Source of the DNA: Promethearchaeota archaeon
Lineage (GTDB): Archaea; Asgardarchaeota; Lokiarchaeia; Sigyniarchaeales; SOKP01
DNA: 11,423 nt
Direction of reading: 5' to 3'
Assembly: GCA_016926735.1 (NCBI GenBank)
Contig: JAFGOA010000190.1
Span: 1 to 11,423, forward strand
How positions within the stretch are numbered: position 1 is the first letter of the stretch; every line of letters starts with the position of its first letter. A model generated the notes under the pieces. That model had not been told where the DNA came from, did no database searches, and worked only from the letters and a program-made list of their open reading frames with translations. The position numbers were made by a program, and so were the translations under genes. Positions 263 through 11,423 of this stretch are shown here, piece after piece.

Positions 263-745
263 CTATTCCGAAATAATCTCAAAAACCATTTTTTCAATAA
301 TTGGTTTCTTAGTATAACGTTTATCGTAGTACCATCCTACAAGATGGGGTTTTTGTTCTTTTTCTTCAATAGTTGGAATAATAATTATCATAACTCCATT
401 TGATAGATATTTTAAAATACGTTTATCAATTGTATGAAGTTTATCTCTACCTTCGGGATGAGTATGAGCTTGCCAAACAATATCTACTCCCAATTCTTCT
501 TTAAATTTTCGCATATTATAAATTTTTGATTTTTTATATCGCATCCAACTTCTTGGTTTTACATGTTTTTTTGTTTTCTTAAGATCATTATTAACAACAA
601 ATTTACTTACAATACCAAAATTTTCTTTTCTATCAGCAAAGATCCAATAGTGTTCAATATATGGATATGCTTCTTTAGCTTTTTGAGTTAATTCATTAAA
701 AATCCGTTCGGGTATTAAATACCTAAAATCCTCAGCACCACTCAT
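263..745 (-). CDS. JAB/MPN (JAMM)-like metalloprotease-domain protein, 160 aa
   Basis: N-terminal Glu in YPYIEHYWIF, a WQAHTHP-x6-H-TID motif matching the spacing of JAMM E...HxH-x7-S-x2-D, and a following hydrophobic strand (VMIIII). The size fits a stand-alone MPN domain. Confidence 0.7.
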   Translation of the reverse strand: MSGAEDFRYLIPERIFNELTQKAKEAYPYIEHYWIFADRKENFGIVSKFVVNNDLKKTKKHVKPRSWMRYKKSKIYNMRKFKEELGVDIVWQAHTHPEGRDKLHTIDKRILKYLSNGVMIIIIPTIEEKEQKPHLVGWYYDKRYTKKPIIEKMVFEIISE

Positions 746-958: not shown

Positions 959-1057
959 GCAGATGTAGCCTAGTGGTAAGACGCCAGCCTTGAGGATTAA
1001 AAAATCAAGCAAGCTGGTGCGCGTAAGCGCTCGGGGGTTCAAATCCCCCCATCTGCG
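959..1057 (+). tRNA. tRNA-Ser(UGA) with a 17-nt canonical 37/38 intron (995-1011)
   Basis: Acceptor stem GCAGATG (959-965)/CATCTGC (1050-1056) with discriminator G1057. Anticodon stem CCAGC/GCTGG, anticodon TGA at 991-993. Long variable arm GCGC-GTAA-GCGC (type II, Ser). T arm GGGGG-TTCAAAT-CCCCC. BHB motif: CTTG (989-992) pairs with CAAG (1006-1009), with bulges AG|G and CA|A. CCA is not encoded. Confidence 0.95.
1037..1057 (+). repeat. att-like direct repeat, copy 1 (3' end of tRNA-Ser)
   Basis: GTTCAAATCCCCCCATCTGCG matches 2652-2672 at 20 of 21 positions. Confidence 0.9.
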
Positions 1058-1435: not shown

Positions 1436-1798
1436 TTATCTCCAATTAGTACTAAATTTAAAACCTGGTTTAATTGTTTTTCGATATGCTGTACCTCTTG
1501 GATGAATATCTAATATTATCAGCTGGTCTAGTGAATTAGTATCACATTGTTCGCAATTAAAATATTTTGCAAATTCTTCAAAACATTGACGACAGTAGAG
1601 AAAAAGTATTCTTGATGAACCATAGGTAATTCTTTTAAAAAATTTAAGAGGTCCCTTAAGATTTGTGATCCTCTTAACATCTATTAATGTTATGTGATTT
1701 AATTCATATATAACATTTTTTCTTTTATTTTTTTTAACATAAATTTTAAAATTATTTTTAAAGTCTTCAGTGTATGCAATTGGAAGAGTTCCTGACAT
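1436..1798 (-). CDS. RelE/ParE-superfamily toxin-like protein with a CxxC-x9-CxxC insertion, 120 aa
   Basis: It shows the RelE-like layout: IAYTEDFKNNFK (beta1-alpha1), LKGPLKFFKRITYGSSRILF (the LkG...R...G.yRiif segment) and a C-terminal IILDIHPRGTAY (i.i.hR..Y). The protein is basic, and its ATG lies 2 nt after the upstream gene's stop. Confidence 0.75.
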   Translation of the reverse strand: MSGTLPIAYTEDFKNNFKIYVKKNKRKNVIYELNHITLIDVKRITNLKGPLKFFKRITYGSSRILFLYCRQCFEEFAKYFNCEQCDTNSLDQLIILDIHPRGTAYRKTIKPGFKFSTNWR

Positions 1799-1800
1799 TT

Positions 1801-2403
1801 TTAAAGTTGCACAAAATTAGCTGTTATACAATCTTTTATCCCTTTTTGAATATTCTGAAGAATTTTTGGATTTAATAATATTTCCACAGTATCATACCAA
1901 TCCTCATCAAGTTCGAATTTATATTTTGGATTGGAGATATTTCTTGGATCAATTATCGATTCAAACTCTTCATATTCATAAAATGATTGTCTTTTTATTC
2001 CTATATGTGGTAGATCATATATATATTTAGCCAAATCATCTCCATTAAATCCTTGAAACTCGTCGATAATATTATCAAAAATATTAAATAGATTACTATT
2101 TTCTTGAATTAGATCATCTATTTGTTTAAGAAATACACCAGTAGTTTCATTTTTATAATATCTGTTAGAATATTTAATATAAGTATTTTCTGCCAAATTA
2201 TCTAGATTTCGTTGAAATTTTTGATTATAAGGGCCCATTTGGCATTTTATCATATTATAGTGAGGTCCAATTGATTTTTTTAACAACATATCTTCCTCAA
2301 GGAGAAATATAAATTTAGCAACTCTTTTTCTACCTCCTCCTTTCTCTAATTTATTTAATAGGTAAAGATCTAAAATTAGATCCTCATAATTCACTCTATT
2401 CAC
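1801..2403 (-). CDS. Putative antitoxin: Panacea(SocA/DUF4065)/YwgA-like winged-helix domain with a Phd/YefM/RelB-like C-terminal helix, 200 aa
   Basis: GRKRVAKFIFLLE...YNMIKCQMGPYNQKFQRNLDNL resembles the 'lqKlvfl...y.f...yGPys..l...l..L' signature. The C-terminal DTVEILLNPKILQNIQKGIKD resembles the 'ETleil.np..m..i.....d' toxin-binding helix of Phd/YefM/RelB antitoxins. It has a GTG start with a strong SD and lies directly upstream of the RelE-like gene. Confidence 0.65.
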   Translation of the reverse strand: MNRVNYEDLILDLYLLNKLEKGGGRKRVAKFIFLLEEDMLLKKSIGPHYNMIKCQMGPYNQKFQRNLDNLAENTYIKYSNRYYKNETTGVFLKQIDDLIQENSNLFNIFDNIIDEFQGFNGDDLAKYIYDLPHIGIKRQSFYEYEEFESIIDPRNISNPKYKFELDEDWYDTVEILLNPKILQNIQKGIKDCITANFVQL

Positions 2404-2410
2404 AACACTT

Positions 2411-2416
2411 CCTCCT
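2411..2416 (-). promoter_or_regulatory. Shine-Dalgarno sequence (AGGAGG) of the antitoxin gene
   Basis: CCTCCT on the + strand at 2411-2416, with a 7-nt spacer to the GTG at 2403. Confidence 0.7.
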
Positions 2417-2651: not shown

Positions 2652-2672
2652 GTTCAAATCCCCTCATCTGCG
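2652..2672 (+). repeat. att-like direct repeat, copy 2 (displaced tRNA-Ser 3' fragment)
   Basis: GTTCAAATCCCCTCATCTGCG differs from 1037-1057 by one C>T. It is a GC-rich island in very AT-rich surroundings and has no 5' tRNA half upstream. Confidence 0.9.
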
Positions 2673-2997: not shown

Positions 2998-3588
2998 TTA
3001 TGCTTTCATCTCCACCTTTCCTCTCTTATAATTCCATAATGAATTAATCTTCTCTGAAGGAGATTTGAAGGATACTAAATGTTCCCTCAAAGCTACACGT
3101 AAATCATCAAGAGTCTCAAAATATTCATTTGTGTTAATATCTTTCTTTAAGTCTCGCCATAAGATCTCTATAGGATTAAAATCTGGTGAGTAGGGGGGAA
3201 GAAAAATCAATTGTAATCGATCAGCAACACCTCTGAGAAATGGTTCGAGTAGTTTTGCATGATGAGAGGAAGCATTATCTAAAACTAAATATATTTTCCC
3301 TTGGATCATGGTATTTTCTAATAAACCCATAAGAAATCCAAGAAAATGGGGTGCATCCAGCATTTTAATCTCGGCAAAAGTACCTAATTTATTGGTTACA
3401 TCAATAACTCCAATGAGATTAAGATGTTTTCGACCACTATCAATAAAAACTTCAGGTCTCTCACCTTTTATCCACCATATTTTAGATATCCTGCGATTGA
3501 GCTCAAATGACGTTTCATCACAAAAAAGAAGGGCCTCACCGGCTTTCATGCTCAATATAAGTTCATTGAACTCTTTTAAAAACGTCAA
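2998..3588 (-). CDS. IS630 transposase, DDE catalytic part (orfB), joined to orfA by a -1 frameshift
   Basis: The catalytic triad motifs FCDETSF, LVLDNASSHH and LPPYSPDFNPIE are intact. The ORF lies in the -1 frame relative to orfA, directly after the A9 run (T9 at 3591-3599 on the + strand). Confidence 0.93.
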   Translation of the reverse strand: MTFLKEFNELILSMKAGEALLFCDETSFELNRRISKIWWIKGERPEVFIDSGRKHLNLIGVIDVTNKLGTFAEIKMLDAPHFLGFLMGLLENTMIQGKIYLVLDNASSHHAKLLEPFLRGVADRLQLIFLPPYSPDFNPIEILWRDLKKDINTNEYFETLDDLRVALREHLVSFKSPSEKINSLWNYKRGKVEMKA

Positions 3589-4064
3589 TCTTTTTTTTTA
3601 TCAGCTTTTGGTGATTTAGAACGTGGAACTATTAATCGGAATTCCATCCTATCAAGAAGGGCATAAATTCCATTTTGTGTCATTTTTACTCCAAATTTCT
3701 TTTTGATATGATAACAGATAGTTCTTCTATACCAATTTGAGAAATTGTATCCTAATTTTCTTGGGGAGGATAATAAATCAGATTTCAATTCTGATAATTC
3801 TTCCTGCGAAAGTTTTGCTGGGCGTCCAGATGATTTTTTCGGTTTTAAATGTTCTATTCCCTCTTCATTAAAACGCTCTACCCACCTCAAAATAGTCTCT
3901 TCATGAACATGTAAAATATATGTAACATCATCCACAGGAGTAAGATCGCAGAGCAGAGCGAGAGCATGATATCTCATCGCTAGGCGAGCATTATTTTCAT
4001 GTTTATAGAGGTCCCAAAAGGCAAGAGCAGGATCATACTCTAATACTACTTCACATGTATTCAT
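3585..4064 (-). CDS. IS630 transposase, N-terminal HTH part (orfA)
   Basis: Motifs ETILRWVERFNEEGIEHL, SGRPAKLS, PRKLGY..SNW and IKKKFGVKM are typical of the IS630 HTH regions. The likely start is the ATG at 4064 (MNTCEV) rather than the TTG at 4112. It ends just after an A9 run. Confidence 0.9.
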   Translation of the reverse strand: MNTCEVVLEYDPALAFWDLYKHENNARLAMRYHALALLCDLTPVDDVTYILHVHEETILRWVERFNEEGIEHLKPKKSSGRPAKLSQEELSELKSDLLSSPRKLGYNFSNWYRRTICYHIKKKFGVKMTQNGIYALLDRMEFRLIVPRSKSPKADKKKD

Positions 4065-4384
4065 AATTAGAATAAGAAGATTGAGTGAGCTAAATAAATA
4101 TATATTATACAAATATTATACTATCAACAAAAAATATTTTGATTAGTATATCTTTTTTTATCAACTGTTTTTTTTATTTTATCAAATTTATACAATTAAA
4201 ATTTTTAGTTTGCTACTAACTAATGTAATAACAATAAAAGGAGTCTAAATATCGCTTCAAAAAAGGATCTAAATTAAAATCTCAGAGAAAAGTATCAAAT
4301 TTGATGATTCCTCTAATAAATAGCGTTTTATTTAAATATTTTAATTGCTATTAGTATATTATAGCAAAGAATTTTTCTTTTATC

Positions 4385-5602
4385 TTGATAATAGTGAAGG
4401 AATTCCGAATTAATGAGTATTTAAGCGTAAAATTAGAGGATAATAAGACTCAGATTTATGTAGCTGGAGAGCGTTTTATGCAATGCGCGGCGCTTTTATT
4501 TCATCTTCCGGTTAAAGATTTGAATTATTTTGAGGGAATTACTTCGATTGATGATGCTCAGCTAAATTTTGAGAAGATTTATGATGAGACTGGGCTTGCT
4601 ATGGGGGAGGATATCCCGCCAGAGGAGGAATTTTGGGGACACTGCTCCAATTTGCAGGCGTGGTATGAGCATGGCTACGATACTCGACTCCTTCACAGTA
4701 ATCTTGCGTTTCCTCTGCTTAAAAAGCTTTCGGAAGCGGGAGATGAGCAGGCAAAACACATGTTTTTTGAGGAGATAATCTATCGTTATAAGAACGGCAA
4801 TTTATTTACTCGAAGATTCTTATCGGAAGAGCAATTTCTAAATCTTTTGCCAATAGATATGCTTTTACATCTTTATTTAGATTCAGATGAGGAGGTTATG
4901 GCTTTATTCGACCTTTGGGAGGAAGTTGAGAAAGGTATTTCTGAGGAATATAAAAAGTATAAGACTTTTGAAGATTTTATTTATGAATCTTCTGGAGAAT
5001 CATTTAATTATTTTGACAATTATAGATATGTAAGAGAACTTAACCTTTCCCGTTACACTCTTGATAAATTCCCAGAAGCTATTCTTCAATTTAAGCGTCT
5101 TAAGGAGCTAAATCTTACTGGTGTTGGCATCACCTACATTCCAAGGAAAATTTATCGTTTAAAAGAGCTAAAGAGCTTAGATTTAGATTCTAATAAGTTA
5201 AAAACTTTACCAATTTCCATCTGTTCAATGGAGAATTTAGAGTATCTATCGATAAGAAAAAACCAACTTGAGTGCCTTCCTCAGAACATTGGGAATTTAA
5301 AGAAGTTAAAAGAGCTCAATCTAAGGGAAAACAATTTAAAGAGGTTTCCTGATTCGATCGGAGATTTTAAATCCTTAGAAAAACTATATCTAAGCAATAA
5401 TAACATTTCAGAACTTCCTGAATCTATAGGTAATCTTAAAAATCTTAAATCTCTGGATATTAGCAACAATAATCTTAAAACTCTACCAGATTCTATTTAT
5501 GAACTTAACAATTTAAATCATCTAGATATAAGAGGAAATAATTTTGATATTTCTCCAAATATTAGAGAAAGAATGGATTTTTTAAAAGAACCACGGGAAT
5601 AA
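4385..5602 (+). CDS. Leucine-rich repeat protein with a Lokiarchaeia-type N-terminal domain, 405 aa
   Basis: About 8 C-terminal 23-aa LRRs (LxxLxLxxNxLxxLPxxIGxLxx). The N-terminal domain contains EFRINEYLSVKLEDNKTQIYVAGERFMQC and EEEFWGHCSNLQAWYEHGYDTRLLHSNLAFPLLKKL, which I recognise from memory as a family expanded in Lokiarchaeia. The start is TTG at 4385, or alternatively GTG at 4394. Confidence 0.9.
   Translation: MIIVKEFRINEYLSVKLEDNKTQIYVAGERFMQCAALLFHLPVKDLNYFEGITSIDDAQLNFEKIYDETGLAMGEDIPPEEEFWGHCSNLQAWYEHGYDTRLLHSNLAFPLLKKLSEAGDEQAKHMFFEEIIYRYKNGNLFTRRFLSEEQFLNLLPIDMLLHLYLDSDEEVMALFDLWEEVEKGISEEYKKYKTFEDFIYESSGESFNYFDNYRYVRELNLSRYTLDKFPEAILQFKRLKELNLTGVGITYIPRKIYRLKELKSLDLDSNKLKTLPISICSMENLEYLSIRKNQLECLPQNIGNLKKLKELNLRENNLKRFPDSIGDFKSLEKLYLSNNNISELPESIGNLKNLKSLDISNNNLKTLPDSIYELNNLNHLDIRGNNFDISPNIRERMDFLKEPRE
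5030..5549 (+). repeat. LRR coding array (~8 x 69 bp, degenerate at the DNA level)
   Basis: Consecutive units include LKSLDLDSNKLKTLPISICSMEN, LEYLSIRKNQLECLPQNIGNLKK, LKELNLRENNLKRFPDSIGDFKS, LEKLYLSNNNISELPESIGNLKN and LKSLDISNNNLKTLPDSIYELNN. Confidence 0.9.
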
Positions 5603-5621
5603 TACTACAATTATGTATTAA

Positions 5622-8600
5622 TTATTGTTTTTCCTTTTTTAATTCTATAATTCCATCTTTTTGTGGCATATTGAAAAAATTATTAAACCAAGATTTTAAA
5701 TTTATGGCATCATCAAACATCCAGATTGGCCAGCAATCGCCATAATTCCAGATATCCTTACCTCCTATCTTGTTCCATCCTTTTTTCCATTCACCGAGTA
5801 TTTGCCTTCCTTTATCGCTAAGTTTAGCGTTAATTCTTTCCTCTCCTAAACCAATAACATAATCCTCTGAGAAGAGCTCTCGTTGAGAAGCAAATACTCC
5901 ATAACTTGCAACTTCATCTCTCGCTCCCTCCTTAATAAACACCTGTGCATTAAACATCACCATGTAGAATACAATACTTGCGACAAACTGTCTAAATTTG
6001 GCTTCATTGAGAATTTTACTTCCATCCTTTTCAAGATTAAATTCTAATTGATAATTATCTATTAAATCACCAAATTTCGCTGTCATATATTTATTATCAT
6101 CACTATTAATTTTCGAGAATTCCCCAAATCCGAGATTATTCTCAATATGAAATTCAGCAGTAAACTTCTGTCCATTCTCATAGTTATTGGAAAGAATAGT
6201 GCTCAATCTACTATAAAGATGGCTAATTTTATAGGCGAATTCTTTCGTAAGGAGAGAATTAATACTAAATGTCAGATGGTTCTTTTTAATATTATAATAA
6301 TTATAATACAATGCAGGCTGAATTTTGTAGATATTATCTCTAAAAAAAGTCTCGAAAGTCTGCGAATTAAGCGTCAATGTACCATAATTCCTTATATCCC
6401 AGTATATCTCTGTTGGGCCTTCAATATTATTACTGATATATTGAATGGTCTGAACTTCTTGCGTTCCGGTAAAAATCCGTGCTAAAGAAGAAATAGGGTC
6501 TTGATTTCTATTTGGAATGCCTGGAGTTACTACCCATTGAAATAGTTGTGATACTGCAAAATTAATATTTTTTTGGCTCCAAATATCTGCTGAAGGACTA
6601 TATTTAAAGATATTTATATCTAAAATTCTTCCTGCTGATCTTGTAAGCTTGGGTGACATTAATGTTTTTAAAAGCGTGCTAAAATCGTTCATTATTGATG
6701 ATTTTCCGGTAATCATTTTCTTTTCGCTGTAATCAGGGCTTAAATTCTTGTTAAGATAACATGCGATAAAGTTTTCCTTCAGAGCGCCATAATGTCTATA
6801 ATGTTCAGGTTCTTGAAAATTTCCATCAATAATGTTATTTAAAAAGTCATTTGATGCTTTAGTGCGCATTAATTCATTTTTGGAAGTACCTATATCTATT
6901 ATAGTTAAATGGCCAAAAAGTAGGAGAGGTATAAAGACATTTTCTAGGAAATCCTGCGTTTTATATGAGTCTATTGAATCGCTGGATCTTGAATTAATAC
7001 TCCTGACTCCTCTCTTGTAAAGAATATCTCTTAATAAATCATAGTTAAACACGATAGGTTGAATTTTTATTTGTCTATCTTCCATGCTGAGATGTATCAT
7101 TCCGATTTTAAGCAGAGTATAGAATCGATAACCAAATATATTTCGTAATAGATCATCCATTACTTCGACTAGTCGATACTCTTCTTGTGTATATTTATTT
7201 GATTCAAGATCAGAGAATTGAACACTGTTGTACTTCTTTTTATATTGTAAAAGTAAGCTATTTGTTCCAGTATATTTATTGATAAGTTTGTGGAGTGTGC
7301 TAAAGAATTCTTTTTGATTAATTTTGTGGTTAGATAACGTAGTAAGTTCTTGATCTTCTTCAGAAGGATGAAAATCTTTCAATATGTTCTTAATAACCTC
7401 TAAATCTTGGTCATAAAAATCTTCAGAAATAATGAGCTCTGAGATAGATTGTATATTATACTTTTTAGATTCAGAAGGTAAAAAGATCGATGTGAATTGC
7501 TCAATAACGCTTAAAATCTCGACCAACTCCTTTTTAACGTTATCATCATCGATATTTTCAATATCAATAAAATTCTGAACTTTATATTCTTCTTTTTTAA
7601 TAAGACTAAATTGACTATCTCTTACAAGGATATTTGGTAATGGCGATCTATATGGTTCAATATGTTCAACATTTAAAATTGTCTCTTGTAAGCTCATTTG
7701 AATATCCTCCCCAGAAGAAATTAAATACCCTGCATAGAAATTTGATTTATATCCTATTAAATTATTAGTATCATCACGAATCTCTTCATGTATGTAAAAT
7801 TCTTTTGCCCAATTTTGATCGACATTGTTATTTTTATCTTTTCTTATTGCTAAAATAGTTTGAGAGAACTCTAATTTGCTAATTAATCGGACACCTTTAT
7901 TATCAGCTACAAAGATGTCATGATAAATATTTCCCTTGTTATCTTTAAATCCTTCTCGAATGCGAGTATTGGAAAGTTCGCTAATACGATTCACAGGGAC
8001 TAATATTATTCGATCTTCCAAATAATCCTCATGGTGGCAAATAACCAAACCCCCCAATTGAGCAAGACTAATTAAATCATCATCAGTATTAATTTCGTAC
8101 ATATCATCTTTAAAGCTTTTATCGAGAGTATAAATTTTATACTGGCTTGGAAAGTCGCTTATGGAGATTTTCTGATTATTTTCAACCCTAAAATGAGGAT
8201 TATAATTAAATATAAAATTCAATTGTAGGCGTCCAGAGCTGGTCGTTGCAATTAAGTTTTCAAAATTATCTTGATTTATTATTAAATCTGCTAATTGTAT
8301 AAATCCTACTCCATTCTTCAGTTGATTAGCAAAATGATCTGATTTAAAGATATCATAAGCAAGATCGATTGTCTTCTTTCTAAATTCAGAATTTTTGAGT
8401 TTAGGATTTTTAAGAATATTAATAATTTCGTCTCGAAGAACTTCTTTTGTGTTTATTTCTCTTTTAGCAAGTTCTTCATTGATGAGATCCATAAATGCTA
8501 CAAGAAATATCTCATGGTCAGGAAGTTTATTGCCAATATTGTAAATATTCTTAGAATAAAATGTATCTAAAATTTTAATAATATTTTTCGAAGTCTCGTC

Positions 8601-11423
8601 CATATCTTGAACGATAAATGGTGCTATTAATTGAACTAATCGCTGAGGTAGATCTTGTATGCTCTGGCTCGTAGAAATTCTTTTTATTATATCTACAATC
8701 ATTGCAGAAAGACCATCATCACATAAGCTCTCAACAATATAAGAATTCGGTGTCATTCTATCTGCCTCTATAATGGATTTAAACCATGTATTCTTAATAT
8801 GGGTTGATATAATTAATGTTATAAAATCAAATATTCCTCCCCCATCAAAAAACCGTCCAATATTTCTTACTGCTGATCTTATATAAAATTCAATATCATC
8901 ATAATTCAAATTAAATGTATTAATTTCATTATCATTTGGACTATATTTTATTCTATTATATATTTTAATATAATTTAATTGTTCAGGAGTTAACCTCTCA
9001 ACTAGCTCATTAAACCATCCTATAACTTTACCTTTTAACATCGAAAGAAAATATTTACTTTCCCCAATATACCCTTGATACCCCCTTATTTTGTTATTCA
9101 ATGATATTTTATTACTTATTAATGGGTCAACTAGAAAACATTCAGTAAAAATATTGATAAATTTAGTAATGCCTTTTCCTGAATGAAAATCATAATAAAG
9201 CTTATCGATTCTATTATCATCTCCTAAAAATTCACTTAGTCTTTGATTAATATCTTCTGAATTCATTGAAGGATTATCAATTTCACATTCTCTCATGATA
9301 CTATCGAGAATGGTAAACTGAATACGATCAACAACAACACTCATAAAATCTTTTTTCCTAAATTCTCCATTAGCCAATTCATTTCGAGCATCATCAAATC
9401 CTTTGTTGAAGATATTTATATACAAGCTCTCAATGAATTTAAGATAAGCATTCTTGATATCTTCATTCTTAAAAGAATTAAGTGTCTTTGCATCTGCAAA
9501 ATATGAATTCCAATAACTTTTCATTAGATTCTCTATCTGATCAATGAAAGTGAGAACGTCATCTTCGCTCATATCCACGATAGAATTATCATATTTCAAT
9601 CCTTGGATAGAGAGTGTCATTGAACGAGTTAAATCTTGTATCATTTGATATAATTGTTCATATATTGGAGCATTTTCTTGAGTTATAAGTACATCAACTC
9701 GGTTCTTAAACCAATATCCAAATTGCTCTGTATAGAATTTCAATACTTCGGGCGATAGACTTGAAATACCTAAAAAGTTCCCTATAGGAGTTACGCCATT
9801 TGGATTATAATCCAAGATTTCAATTTGATGTGATCTCATCTGCATTAAATCGTCACTTATCCAATCATTATCATCTAATTGTTCAATAAGAGAATTATAT
9901 CCGAGAATATCAAGAAGATCATTAAATTCCATATTCATACTATATTTTTGGACATCTCCAGAATCATAAGTTATTAAAATTTCATTAGAATCAATGGATA
10001 CGGTTATTTCCTTGAAAAATCTTAAATAAATAGACTGCCCTTTTGAAATTTCAAAATTTCTTTTAATTTCATTAAAAGCTTTTTTTACTGTTAATTTACC
10101 ATCTTTTGTAAAAAATGTCCATCCTACAGAATGATCTTCATACTTAAATAATGGATCAACTGCTTCAACACCTTCAGAAGATTTAACTATTGGTAATGCA
10201 AATCGCTCAGTTGTCTGACTTAGATCATTATCAATCGATTGCTCATTTTCCAATATATTTAATGAAATTTGAGAAGATTCAGTATTTTTTATTTTATTTT
10301 TCATTTTTGTTATCGCTTCAGTGATAACGGTTGGCACTTTTAGACTATTCTTAGTCCTATCTATTAGATTTTTAAGGATATTTGCAAAACCAGTTTTTTG
10401 ATTCACATTATCAACTACATCTATTTTATGAATATCATTTATTTGAGGCATTACATTTATAGTAGGTAGTGTTTCTAGACCCTCAATATCTCTATTTATT
10501 AGTGTTTTGGTGTCTGGCGCAGTATTTTGCTTTTGCTGAGTCAATATACTATTTTTATTACTCATTCGATTGTAAAGATGGGATTGGTATGAATGCATGA
10601 GTCTTCTGTCAAGATTATCTAAAAACGTAGTAGAAAAATACTCAATACCAATAGCAGAGCCTATACTTGATAAACCCGGTAAGAAGAGCATTAAGCCTGA
10701 AGCTATAAATAGTGCGCTGAGTTTTTTGATTGTTGGAACTTTCTGCTCATTTGAAAAAATATTGAGTTCACTTATTTTTGAGGTGATGGCTTCTTGATTT
10801 GTAAGGGCAATTTGAGCTTCGCTGAAAGCATTATTATCTTCCTGTGTTAAAAGAGCACTATACCAGCTTTTAAAATCTCTATTGGTCTTTTGAGCTAAAT
10901 AAATTTGCGCACCATAAGAGAGAGATTGTTGAGAGGTGTCTATACCTATATTTCGTGTAAGAAGACCGAAGAATTTACTCTCACGGGCGCTTGTAGCTAA
11001 AGTGCTTAGCCAATATCCCACCTCACTTGACCATCCCCATGATTTCACAATATTCCCTATATAAGTTTCAATCACTCCATCAACAACAACTTCTTGGAGA
11101 ATTTCTGAATAAGTGCCTATAGCAGTTCTTACTGCCATTTGTGTTGCAAGAAGTCCTATTGTCTGCTGGAGCGTCATTTTCTGTACTTGAGCTGAGACCG
11201 TTTTACTTAAAATAGACATTGCGATTTTATTTCCTGATTTGGCGCAGATTTCTATTAACTTTTGCTTAGCCACCTGCGTTAAATATGAGCCAAGTACGAT
11301 CAAAGGAGTCGAAATTAAAGTGGAGATTGCTGTAAGTTTTTTTGTATATTCAAGTTCCCCAATCATTCCAGCAGTCTGGGTTGCAAATGTATATTGATTG
11401 AAATAGTCCATAATGAGATGAGA
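5622..11423 (-). CDS. Giant hypothetical protein, C-terminal part (>=1933 aa; 5' end probably outside the window)
   Basis: A 5.8-kb stop-free frame in AT-rich DNA cannot be chance. The frame stays open upstream of the ATG at 11411 to the window edge (TCT CAT CTC ATT ATG). Hydrophobic segments lie near 11280-11336 and 10645-10721. No domain is confidently recognisable. Confidence 0.85.
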   Translation of the reverse strand, partial: SHLIMDYFNQYTFATQTAGMIGELEYTKKLTAISTLISTPLIVLGSYLTQVAKQKLIEICAKSGNKIAMSILSKTVSAQVQKMTLQQTIGLLATQMAVRTAIGTYSEILQEVVVDGVIETYIGNIVKSWGWSSEVGYWLSTLATSARESKFFGLLTRNIGIDTSQQSLSYGAQIYLAQKTNRDFKSWYSALLTQEDNNAFSEAQIALTNQEAITSKISELNIFSNEQKVPTIKKLSALFIASGLMLFLPGLSSIGSAIGIEYFSTTFLDNLDRRLMHSYQSHLYNRMSNKNSILTQQKQNTAPDTKTLINRDIEGLETLPTINVMPQINDIHKIDVVDNVNQKTGFANILKNLIDRTKNSLKVPTVITEAITKMKNKIKNTESSQISLNILENEQSIDNDLSQTTERFALPIVKSSEGVEAVDPLFKYEDHSVGWTFFTKDGKLTVKKAFNEIKRNFEISKGQSIYLRFFKEITVSIDSNEILITYDSGDVQKYSMNMEFNDLLDILGYNSLIEQLDDNDWISDDLMQMRSHQIEILDYNPNGVTPIGNFLGISSLSPEVLKFYTEQFGYWFKNRVDVLITQENAPIYEQLYQMIQDLTRSMTLSIQGLKYDNSIVDMSEDDVLTFIDQIENLMKSYWNSYFADAKTLNSFKNEDIKNAYLKFIESLYINIFNKGFDDARNELANGEFRKKDFMSVVVDRIQFTILDSIMRECEIDNPSMNSEDINQRLSEFLGDDNRIDKLYYDFHSGKGITKFINIFTECFLVDPLISNKISLNNKIRGYQGYIGESKYFLSMLKGKVIGWFNELVERLTPEQLNYIKIYNRIKYSPNDNEINTFNLNYDDIEFYIRSAVRNIGRFFDGGGIFDFITLIISTHIKNTWFKSIIEADRMTPNSYIVESLCDDGLSAMIVDIIKRISTSQSIQDLPQRLVQLIAPFIVQDMDETSKNIIKILDTFYSKNIYNIGNKLPDHEIFLVAFMDLINEELAKREINTKEVLRDEIINILKNPKLKNSEFRKKTIDLAYDIFKSDHFANQLKNGVGFIQLADLIINQDNFENLIATTSSGRLQLNFIFNYNPHFRVENNQKISISDFPSQYKIYTLDKSFKDDMYEINTDDDLISLAQLGGLVICHHEDYLEDRIILVPVNRISELSNTRIREGFKDNKGNIYHDIFVADNKGVRLISKLEFSQTILAIRKDKNNNVDQNWAKEFYIHEEIRDDTNNLIGYKSNFYAGYLISSGEDIQMSLQETILNVEHIEPYRSPLPNILVRDSQFSLIKKEEYKVQNFIDIENIDDDNVKKELVEILSVIEQFTSIFLPSESKKYNIQSISELIISEDFYDQDLEVIKNILKDFHPSEEDQELTTLSNHKINQKEFFSTLHKLINKYTGTNSLLLQYKKKYNSVQFSDLESNKYTQEEYRLVEVMDDLLRNIFGYRFYTLLKIGMIHLSMEDRQIKIQPIVFNYDLLRDILYKRGVRSINSRSSDSIDSYKTQDFLENVFIPLLLFGHLTIIDIGTSKNELMRTKASNDFLNNIIDGNFQEPEHYRHYGALKENFIACYLNKNLSPDYSEKKMITGKSSIMNDFSTLLKTLMSPKLTRSAGRILDINIFKYSPSADIWSQKNINFAVSQLFQWVVTPGIPNRNQDPISSLARIFTGTQEVQTIQYISNNIEGPTEIYWDIRNYGTLTLNSQTFETFFRDNIYKIQPALYYNYYNIKKNHLTFSINSLLTKEFAYKISHLYSRLSTILSNNYENGQKFTAEFHIENNLGFGEFSKINSDDNKYMTAKFGDLIDNYQLEFNLEKDGSKILNEAKFRQFVASIVFYMVMFNAQVFIKEGARDEVASYGVFASQRELFSEDYVIGLGEERINAKLSDKGRQILGEWKKGWNKIGGKDIWNYGDCWPIWMFDDAINLKSWFNNFFNMPQKDGIIELKKEKQ

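Follow-up and report, generated by a model that had tools for sequence, protein, structure and literature searches.

A Phd/YefM-type antitoxin tail and a four-cysteine RelE-family toxin in a probable PanAT toxin-antitoxin module (type II) on a tRNA-flanked islet of an Asgard archaeon

What do two small, tightly coupled genes of an Asgard archaeon encode, which part of one product would hold the other in check, and does their arrangement represent a new kind of system? These questions are raised by positions 1436-2403 of contig JAFGOA010000190.1 from a Promethearchaeota archaeon, a stretch of 11,423 nucleotides that is analysed here as the window and corresponds to the whole 11.4-kb contig of a 3.9-Mb, 99% complete genome. 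A preliminary description of this sequence had proposed a candidate new subtype of toxin-antitoxin (TA) system, in which a chimeric antitoxin, made of a Panacea-like winged-helix domain and a Phd/YefM-like tail, is paired with a RelE-like toxin bearing a four-cysteine (Cys4) insertion. Combining homologue searches, profile comparisons, structural models and comparative genomics, we found that the three domain assignments underlying this chimera stand at the level of the families, while its novelty does not. In our assessment the two genes probably constitute a PanAT-type TA module (type II) on a tRNA-flanked islet, with a RelE-family toxin that the antitoxin tail would neutralise.

Both genes are located on the minus strand, with the antitoxin placed first. 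The antitoxin open reading frame (ORF) encodes 200 residues from a GTG start (1801-2403) and is followed, after a spacing of 2 nt (TAA-AA-ATG), by the 120-residue toxin ORF, which starts with ATG (1436-1798). A GGAGG Shine-Dalgarno-like motif, read from the sequence, lies 7 nt upstream of the GTG start (2411-2415, minus strand) and recurs ahead of antitoxin homologues when their upstream sequences are aligned. This layout is the one initially described, and the motifs quoted at the time are all present, namely AKFIFLLEE, GPY, the acidic ELDEDWYD and the tail TVEILLNPKILQNIQKGIKD in the antitoxin, and cysteines 69, 72, 82 and 85 in the toxin.

The two genes are also conserved as a pair. BLASTP searches with the antitoxin recovered 35 full-length homologues from metagenomes (38-59% identity), the named ones belonging to Thor- and Promethearchaeota, and the scanning of genome and metagenome contigs provided 44 further antitoxin loci. 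Of the 50 related loci that left room downstream, most yielded by tblastn a toxin homologue directly 3' of the antitoxin, and the gap between the two genes ranged from -4 to 34 nt across related loci. Starting from the toxin, profile matches were obtained in 14 of 400 Asgard genomes. The toxin directly adjoined a match to the antitoxin profile in 10 of these 14 genomes and a match to the Pfam family SocA_Panacea in 1 more, the remaining three comprising one pseudogene and two genes whose neighbours were matched by no antitoxin search. The co-occurrence anticipated from the window is thus observed in most related loci and in 10-11 of the 14 toxin-bearing genomes.

The close form of the antitoxin was restricted to 6 of the 400 Asgard species genomes, all from the window's own taxonomic family, and was absent from all three genomes of the same genus in this set. 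Far more distant pairs were identified in four other Asgard families by six-frame profile searches of the same genomes, and these pairs retained both an antitoxin C-terminal tail of the E-T/S-L-E-x-L-L-D type and the CxxC...CxxC of the toxin. In plasmids, the sole match was an ordinary RelE that lacks the insertion. With the toxin as query, a word-indexed homologue search returned the toxin itself only; its relatives were recovered by tblastn beside antitoxin genes and by an exhaustive HMMER search (16 matches).

The identity of the toxin emerges from its fold and from its relatives. The AlphaFold2 model, built on 30 sequences, reached a predicted local distance difference test score (pLDDT) of 82. 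Its best Foldseek match was RelE1 of M. tuberculosis (E 4.7e-4, probability 1.0), and VIA-align superposed it on RelE of T. thermophilus with a Z of 9.7 and a root-mean-square deviation of 2.1 Å over 85 of 89 residues, the top 50 rows of this comparison consisting entirely of RelE/ParE-family toxins or RelE-like domains. Among the relatives, the Pfam family ParE_toxin (PF05016) was weakly matched in 4 of 30 close sequences, and its cut-off of 23 bits was reached by 5 of 8 distant Asgard sequences with the same insertion (23-27.5 bits). These matches end at position 70-74 of the 89 positions of the profile, where the cysteine segment begins. Ordinary bacterial RelE genes are also picked up by the toxin family profile, but only as far as this point, and several of them adjoin YefM genes. 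In addition, distant members of the toxin family are labelled as RelE/ParE or RelE/StbE toxins by NCBI and JGI. Structural comparisons and profile matches of the relatives both support the initial assignment of a RelE-like toxin with a Cys4 insertion.

Alignment of the toxin family with canonical Asgard RelE sequences revealed four residues common to both, G60, R63, R101 and Y105. Within the toxin alignment R63 is invariant, Y105 nearly so, and R101 is found in most sequences. We take R63, R101 and Y105 to be the equivalents of R61, R81 and Y87 of E. coli RelE, which are residues of catalytic type, and because of this match the toxin is read from its sequence as an mRNA interferase rather than as a ParE-like gyrase poison.

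The Cys4 insertion (C69-x2-C72 ... C82-x2-C85; 1544-1594, minus strand) replaces, in the alignment, the β3-β4 turn of RelE and adds ~21 residues at this turn relative to canonical Asgard RelE. A CxxC-x9-CxxC segment occupies the same position in the toxin relatives found, and across 29 sequences, distant Asgard relatives included, three of the cysteines (C69, C82, C85) never vary and the fourth, C72, is kept in at least 90%. By this cysteine pattern, the knuckle presumably binds zinc. Several relatives weakly match zinc-ribbon or RING models. Nothing specific about a zinc-ribbon insertion in RelE was found in the searchable literature.

Some observations concern the range of this insertion and of the pair. 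At the edge of a contig with 44% GC (guanine plus cytosine) content in a Patescibacteria-labelled bin (L151:25-336, contig C48 of genome G472), a 103-aa RelE-like ORF displays a cysteine-rich insertion (CxxC...CxxCxxC) and is followed by a HigB/HigA-like pair, and by its sequence the cysteine insertion may not be confined to Asgard archaea. ESM Atlas look-alikes, considered as leads only, comprised bacterial clusters of 113-116 aa annotated "RelE family toxin" and an archaeal cluster of 223 aa, 20% of whose members carry PF13274. By these leads, both proteins may have relatives further afield, in Methanobacteriota and Thermodesulfobacteriota and, because of these look-alikes and of the cysteine-rich RelE on the 44%-GC contig, the range may extend beyond Asgard archaea. 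Finally, a complete pair (L007/L150, contig C1 of genome G400) is located on a 75-kb contig of a Patescibacteria-labelled metagenome-assembled genome, with a locus GC content of 27% against 29% for the window, and has a DNA methylase and an RNase III-like gene as neighbours on its flanks; its placement could reflect misbinning or gene transfer.

The antitoxin was modelled by AlphaFold2 with a pLDDT of 93.7 and a predicted template modelling score (pTM) of 0.89. Its globular core (~aa 5-146; 1966-2391, minus strand) is a winged-helix-like α/β domain in which G57, P58 and Y59 are invariant among homologues and are preceded by a helix with an invariant K30 and nearly invariant A29, L34 and E36. 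The Panacea-like nature of this core, as first suggested, is borne out at the family level: 29 of the 35 homologues match SocA_Panacea (PF13274, DUF4065) at E <= 0.1, the best with an E of 3.4e-6, two homologues carry a precomputed PF13274 match, and the antitoxin of a distant pair with a Cys4 RelE in genome G012 scored 26 bits to SocA_Panacea in the six-frame search. Panacea is defined by a GPV motif in β2 that adjoins a conserved central helix (PMC8832971), and G57-P58-Y59, judged by sequence, corresponds to this β2 motif.

Among solved folds, the best match of the core came from the DarTG complex of M. tuberculosis: its chain 7yk3_D, of 187 residues, aligned with residues 5-146 over 135 aa at a Z of 10.4, although with a sequence identity of only 7%. 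PadR/MarR winged helices followed at some distance (Z ~7). Because of the length of this chain and of a weak match between the PADLOC DarG profile, in its C-terminal part, and the antitoxin, the matched chain is most likely the C-terminal toxin-binding domain of DarG. If this identity is right, the domain is one that binds its own toxin directly; DarG, unlike the window antitoxin, carries a macrodomain and neutralises an ADP-ribosyltransferase. Our literature searches brought up no mention of a connection between Panacea and the DarG toxin-binding domain. No entry titled PanA or Panacea appeared in PDB fold searches with the core, and the full antitoxin and toxin profiles gave chance matches only against PDB sequences.

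After an acidic ELDED, the antitoxin ends in a two-helix tail (aa 167-200; 1804-1905, minus strand), with helices at residues 167-176 and 179-193 in the model, which we assigned to the Phd/YefM C-terminal type ('Phd-C'-like) from the model and from hhalign. The comparison set consisted of 12 genuine PF02604 proteins from Patescibacteria genomes whose Pfam match reaches the end of the model. Against this set, the tail alignment placed residues 167-200 on YefM 46-79 with a probability of 92.7%, an E of 4.2e-7 and a score of 38.9, far beyond 400 column shuffles of the same comparison (mean 9, standard deviation 1.8, maximum 18.2). The Phd/YefM-like tail proposed at the outset is therefore confirmed by profile-profile comparison. 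The full-length antitoxin profile aligns with YefM solely over these last 34 residues, and the N-terminal dimerisation and DNA-binding fold of Phd/YefM is absent from the antitoxin. Since the YefM alignment is limited to the tail, and since the N-terminal 146 residues fold like the DarTG chain and winged helices, the antitoxin as a whole is not a member of Phd/YefM (PF02604), the tail alone being of that type. Other Asgard Panacea proteins that we inspected, unpaired with this toxin, were devoid of the tail. Asgard Phd/YefM genes had been considered as a comparison set and were dropped, as they mostly carry a different type of tail.

The genomic setting of the pair is accessory and mobile. To its left, an intron-containing tRNA (959-1057, plus strand; Rfam tRNA, 49.3 bits, E 5.9e-9) provides, with its 3' end (1037-1057), the boundary of an islet whose right boundary is a direct repeat of that 3' end, identified by repeat analysis (20/21 nt; 2652-2672, plus strand). 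The 1.6 kb enclosed between the tRNA end and its repeat contain the toxin-antitoxin pair only. In the same-genus genome G019 (L158, contig C254) the end of the tRNA continues without interruption into the right flank, forming an empty site, and in a second one, G117 (L156, contig C395), the same site is occupied by ~950 bp of other cargo with a 169-aa hydrophobic ORF. In view of this empty site and of this alternative cargo, the pair is an accessory islet that was gained recently, at a hot spot of integration. The tRNA itself, which ARAGORN did not report, has an intron of 20 nt and a long variable arm.

Signs of gene decay were recorded among related loci. The toxin of L041 is internally deleted relative to L039, with the neighbouring antitoxin almost unchanged (2 substitutions), six stops make a pseudogene of the toxin in genome G296 (L102, contig C347), and in genome G295 (L073, contig C41) it is the antitoxin that is split into two frames. 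Furthermore, one lineage has lost the toxin and its antitoxin has a degenerate tail end. Such a decay pattern is typical of TA modules. In the toxin-less lineage, small AbrB/SpoVT-like ORFs (…YIPKAY…) lie downstream at L004 (4551-4775 on the minus strand and 4922-5107 on the plus strand), and may represent another antitoxin-like gene.

How would such a module work? The toxin would probably act as a ribosome-dependent mRNA endonuclease of the RelE family, in which the β3-β4 turn has become a four-cysteine, presumably zinc-binding knuckle. The Phd/YefM-type tail would most likely be the part that wraps and blocks this toxin, and the Panacea core would serve as an accessory domain for stability, regulation or the sensing of a trigger. 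Neutralisation by the tail, which we infer, is the best supported reading. It has a precedent in the PanA_Phd-C:Doc system of C. doosanense, where a Panacea core is extended at its C-terminus by a pair of 'Phd-C' helices, which make contact with Doc and neutralise it (Ernits et al. 2023, PMC10440598). Deletion of this tail abolishes neutralisation, and Phd-C alone, fused to SUMO, suffices to neutralise the toxin (PMC10440598). The same study proposed a sensor role for the Panacea domain in multidomain PanAs and reported that stand-alone Panacea domains neutralise toxins directly (PMC10440598).

Several results weigh against this interpretation. At the level of the individual proteins, neither Pfam nor NCBIfam gave a match for the window toxin, and the window antitoxin scores 16.6 bits against SocA_Panacea (E 0.016), below the cut-off of 25.7, a six-frame SocA_Panacea search of the source genome returning nothing at E <= 0.001. 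HMMER searches of the tail against PDB and Pfam, and tblastn searches of two tails against plasmids, gave no link to Phd/YefM, so that hhalign alone provides this link, over 34 columns. The monomer pTM of 0.89 suggests that the tail is fixed relative to the core and is not necessarily a free disordered arm. In a partial Mantel test of distances against the toxin, the core gave a partial r of 0.70 and the tail 0.33, both significant, so that the test did not single out the tail as the partner that co-evolves with the toxin. Finally, at the metagenomic locus L020 (1494-2464) the toxin is inverted and convergent with the antitoxin, their 3' ends overlapping by 4 nt, and this toxin would need its own promoter because its gene is inverted relative to that of the antitoxin.

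Among the alternatives, the least improbable is that the module acts in abortive infection, the Panacea core sensing a viral trigger and allosterically releasing or exposing a tail-held RelE. The sensor role already proposed for multidomain PanAs and the accessory location of the pair would both suit such a function, as would a weak match of the antitoxin to the PADLOC candidate defence protein PDC-M19A (E 1.3e-6), a candidate (PDC-M19) of which a narrow literature check found no mention. Yet a search of 2.9 million viral contigs recovered no related locus, and the 11-kb contig carries no clearly recognised defence gene, the sole hint being a weak BilC match of a neighbouring 160-aa ORF. Moreover, we know of no PanA whose trigger has been established.

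Slightly less probable again is a genuine TA pair in which the Panacea core itself neutralises the toxin, leaving the tail for dimerisation, core packing or contact with DNA or the operator. The direct neutralisation reported for stand-alone Panacea domains gives this option a precedent, and the closest solved fold of the core, most likely the toxin-binding domain of DarG, points the same way. The high monomer pTM would also be consistent with a docked tail, and core distances track the toxin more closely than those of the tail do; however, a stronger correlation of the core is expected from length alone, the core being four times longer than the tail. What speaks for the tail as the neutralising part is its precise alignment with the region by which YefM holds its toxin, the retrieval by the toxin profile of bacterial RelE genes, several of them beside YefM genes, and the absence of a tail in the inspected Asgard Panacea proteins that lack this toxin. 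A winged-helix transcription factor co-regulated with a non-toxic RelE-fold zinc protein, for instance a ribosome- or RNA-associated factor, is very unlikely: the PadR/MarR regulators that follow the DarTG chain among the matches of the core, and the position of both window proteins below Pfam cut-offs, are outweighed by the conserved RelE-type Arg/Arg/Tyr residues, by an antitoxin-first order and tight coupling typical of TA operons, by a patchy, islet-borne distribution with an empty site in a congener, and by repeated decay of the toxin gene while the antitoxin persists.

A further scenario can be envisaged, although we hold it to be improbable. In this scenario, the Cys4 knuckle would be more than a structural brace and would alter the working of RelE, for instance by adapting it to the eukaryote-like small ribosomal subunit of Asgard archaea or by conferring sensitivity to zinc or redox conditions, and the Panacea core would sense a viral or stress trigger and release the tail, making the module an archaeal abortive-infection switch.

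Other elements were noted on the contig. On the other side of the islet, an IS630-like transposase (2998-4112, minus strand) is split into two overlapping frames with domain matches to a helix-turn-helix (3585-4112) and to DDE_3 (2998-3588), which suggests a frameshift or a broken copy. Further to the right is a 1929-aa ORF (5622-11411, minus strand), for which Pfam gives nothing at E <= 0.001 over the 992 residues of its C-terminal part. To the left of the tRNA, the 160-aa ORF mentioned above (263-745, minus strand) bears an HTHPEG-type JAB/MPN-like motif, has no Pfam match besides its weak PADLOC BilC match (E 6e-4), and is found with 81-94% DNA identity in same-genus genomes.

Does the locus then represent a new kind of system? 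The proposal of an undescribed subtype is not sustained, as antitoxins joining Panacea to a Phd-C tail were published in 2023 (PMC10440598) and PanA proteins next to RelE-fold toxins were catalogued in 2022 (PMC8832971). The mechanism put forward in the preliminary description is a rediscovery of the published model and, because Ernits et al. (2023) describe the same antitoxin design, the claim of a new subtype falls. As far as we found, what is new is the Asgard lineage, the association of RelE with a tail of the Phd-C type, and the conserved Cys4 insertion; otherwise, the pair is an ordinary accessory module of addiction or defence type. These elements nevertheless bring Asgard archaea into the PanAT family, whose study has so far concerned bacteria and phages. 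They also provide a natural case of a Phd/YefM-type tail on a Panacea scaffold that faces RelE, not Doc, in keeping with the "linear neutralisation module" model already published for partner swapping by antitoxins, and the Cys4 insertion offers a handle on the metal dependence of RelE toxins or on their adaptation to archaeal ribosomes.

Four known systems delimit these contributions. The closest in design is PanA_Phd-C:Doc, which shares with the window a Panacea core followed by two Phd-type helices, a two-gene operon and the same proposed division of labour between tail and sensor. It differs by its toxin, which is of the Fic/Doc fold when that of the window is a RelE, and by its host, which is not an Asgard archaeon. 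The kinship of the window tail was established by profile comparison with YefM, and the likeness to the C. doosanense PanA is drawn from its description. The closest in pairing are the predicted pairs listed by Kurata et al. (2022, PMC8832971, Dataset S1), in the accessible part of which PanA adjoins RelE/YoeB/HigB-fold toxins in Methanobrevibacter (T14) and Taylorella (T28). As in the window, a Panacea antitoxin precedes a RelE-superfamily toxin, and one of the two is archaeal. This likeness was drawn from the listing, not from sequences, and did not extend to the tail or Cys4 content of these pairs; no Asgard entry was found in that same part of the dataset.

The two remaining systems are those of the tail and of the toxin. 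With YefM-YoeB and Phd/YefM-RelE modules, the window shares a tail motif, [DE]-T-x-E-x-L-x-x-P ... G, that aligns with the toxin-binding region of YefM, and a toxin of the RelE/YoeB superfamily, whereas its antitoxin has a Panacea core of ~150 aa instead of the N-terminal Phd/YefM fold and its toxin a 21-residue Cys4 insertion. Likewise, canonical archaeal RelE proteins, represented by Asgard toxins located beside Phd-like antitoxins (L116-L118) and by the P. horikoshii and M. jannaschii structures, have the same fold, with a conserved Gly-x-x-Arg strand and C-terminal Arg-x3-Tyr. The window toxin is distinguished from them by the CxxC-x9-CxxC that stands in place of the β3-β4 turn, and by the different class of antitoxin with which it is paired.

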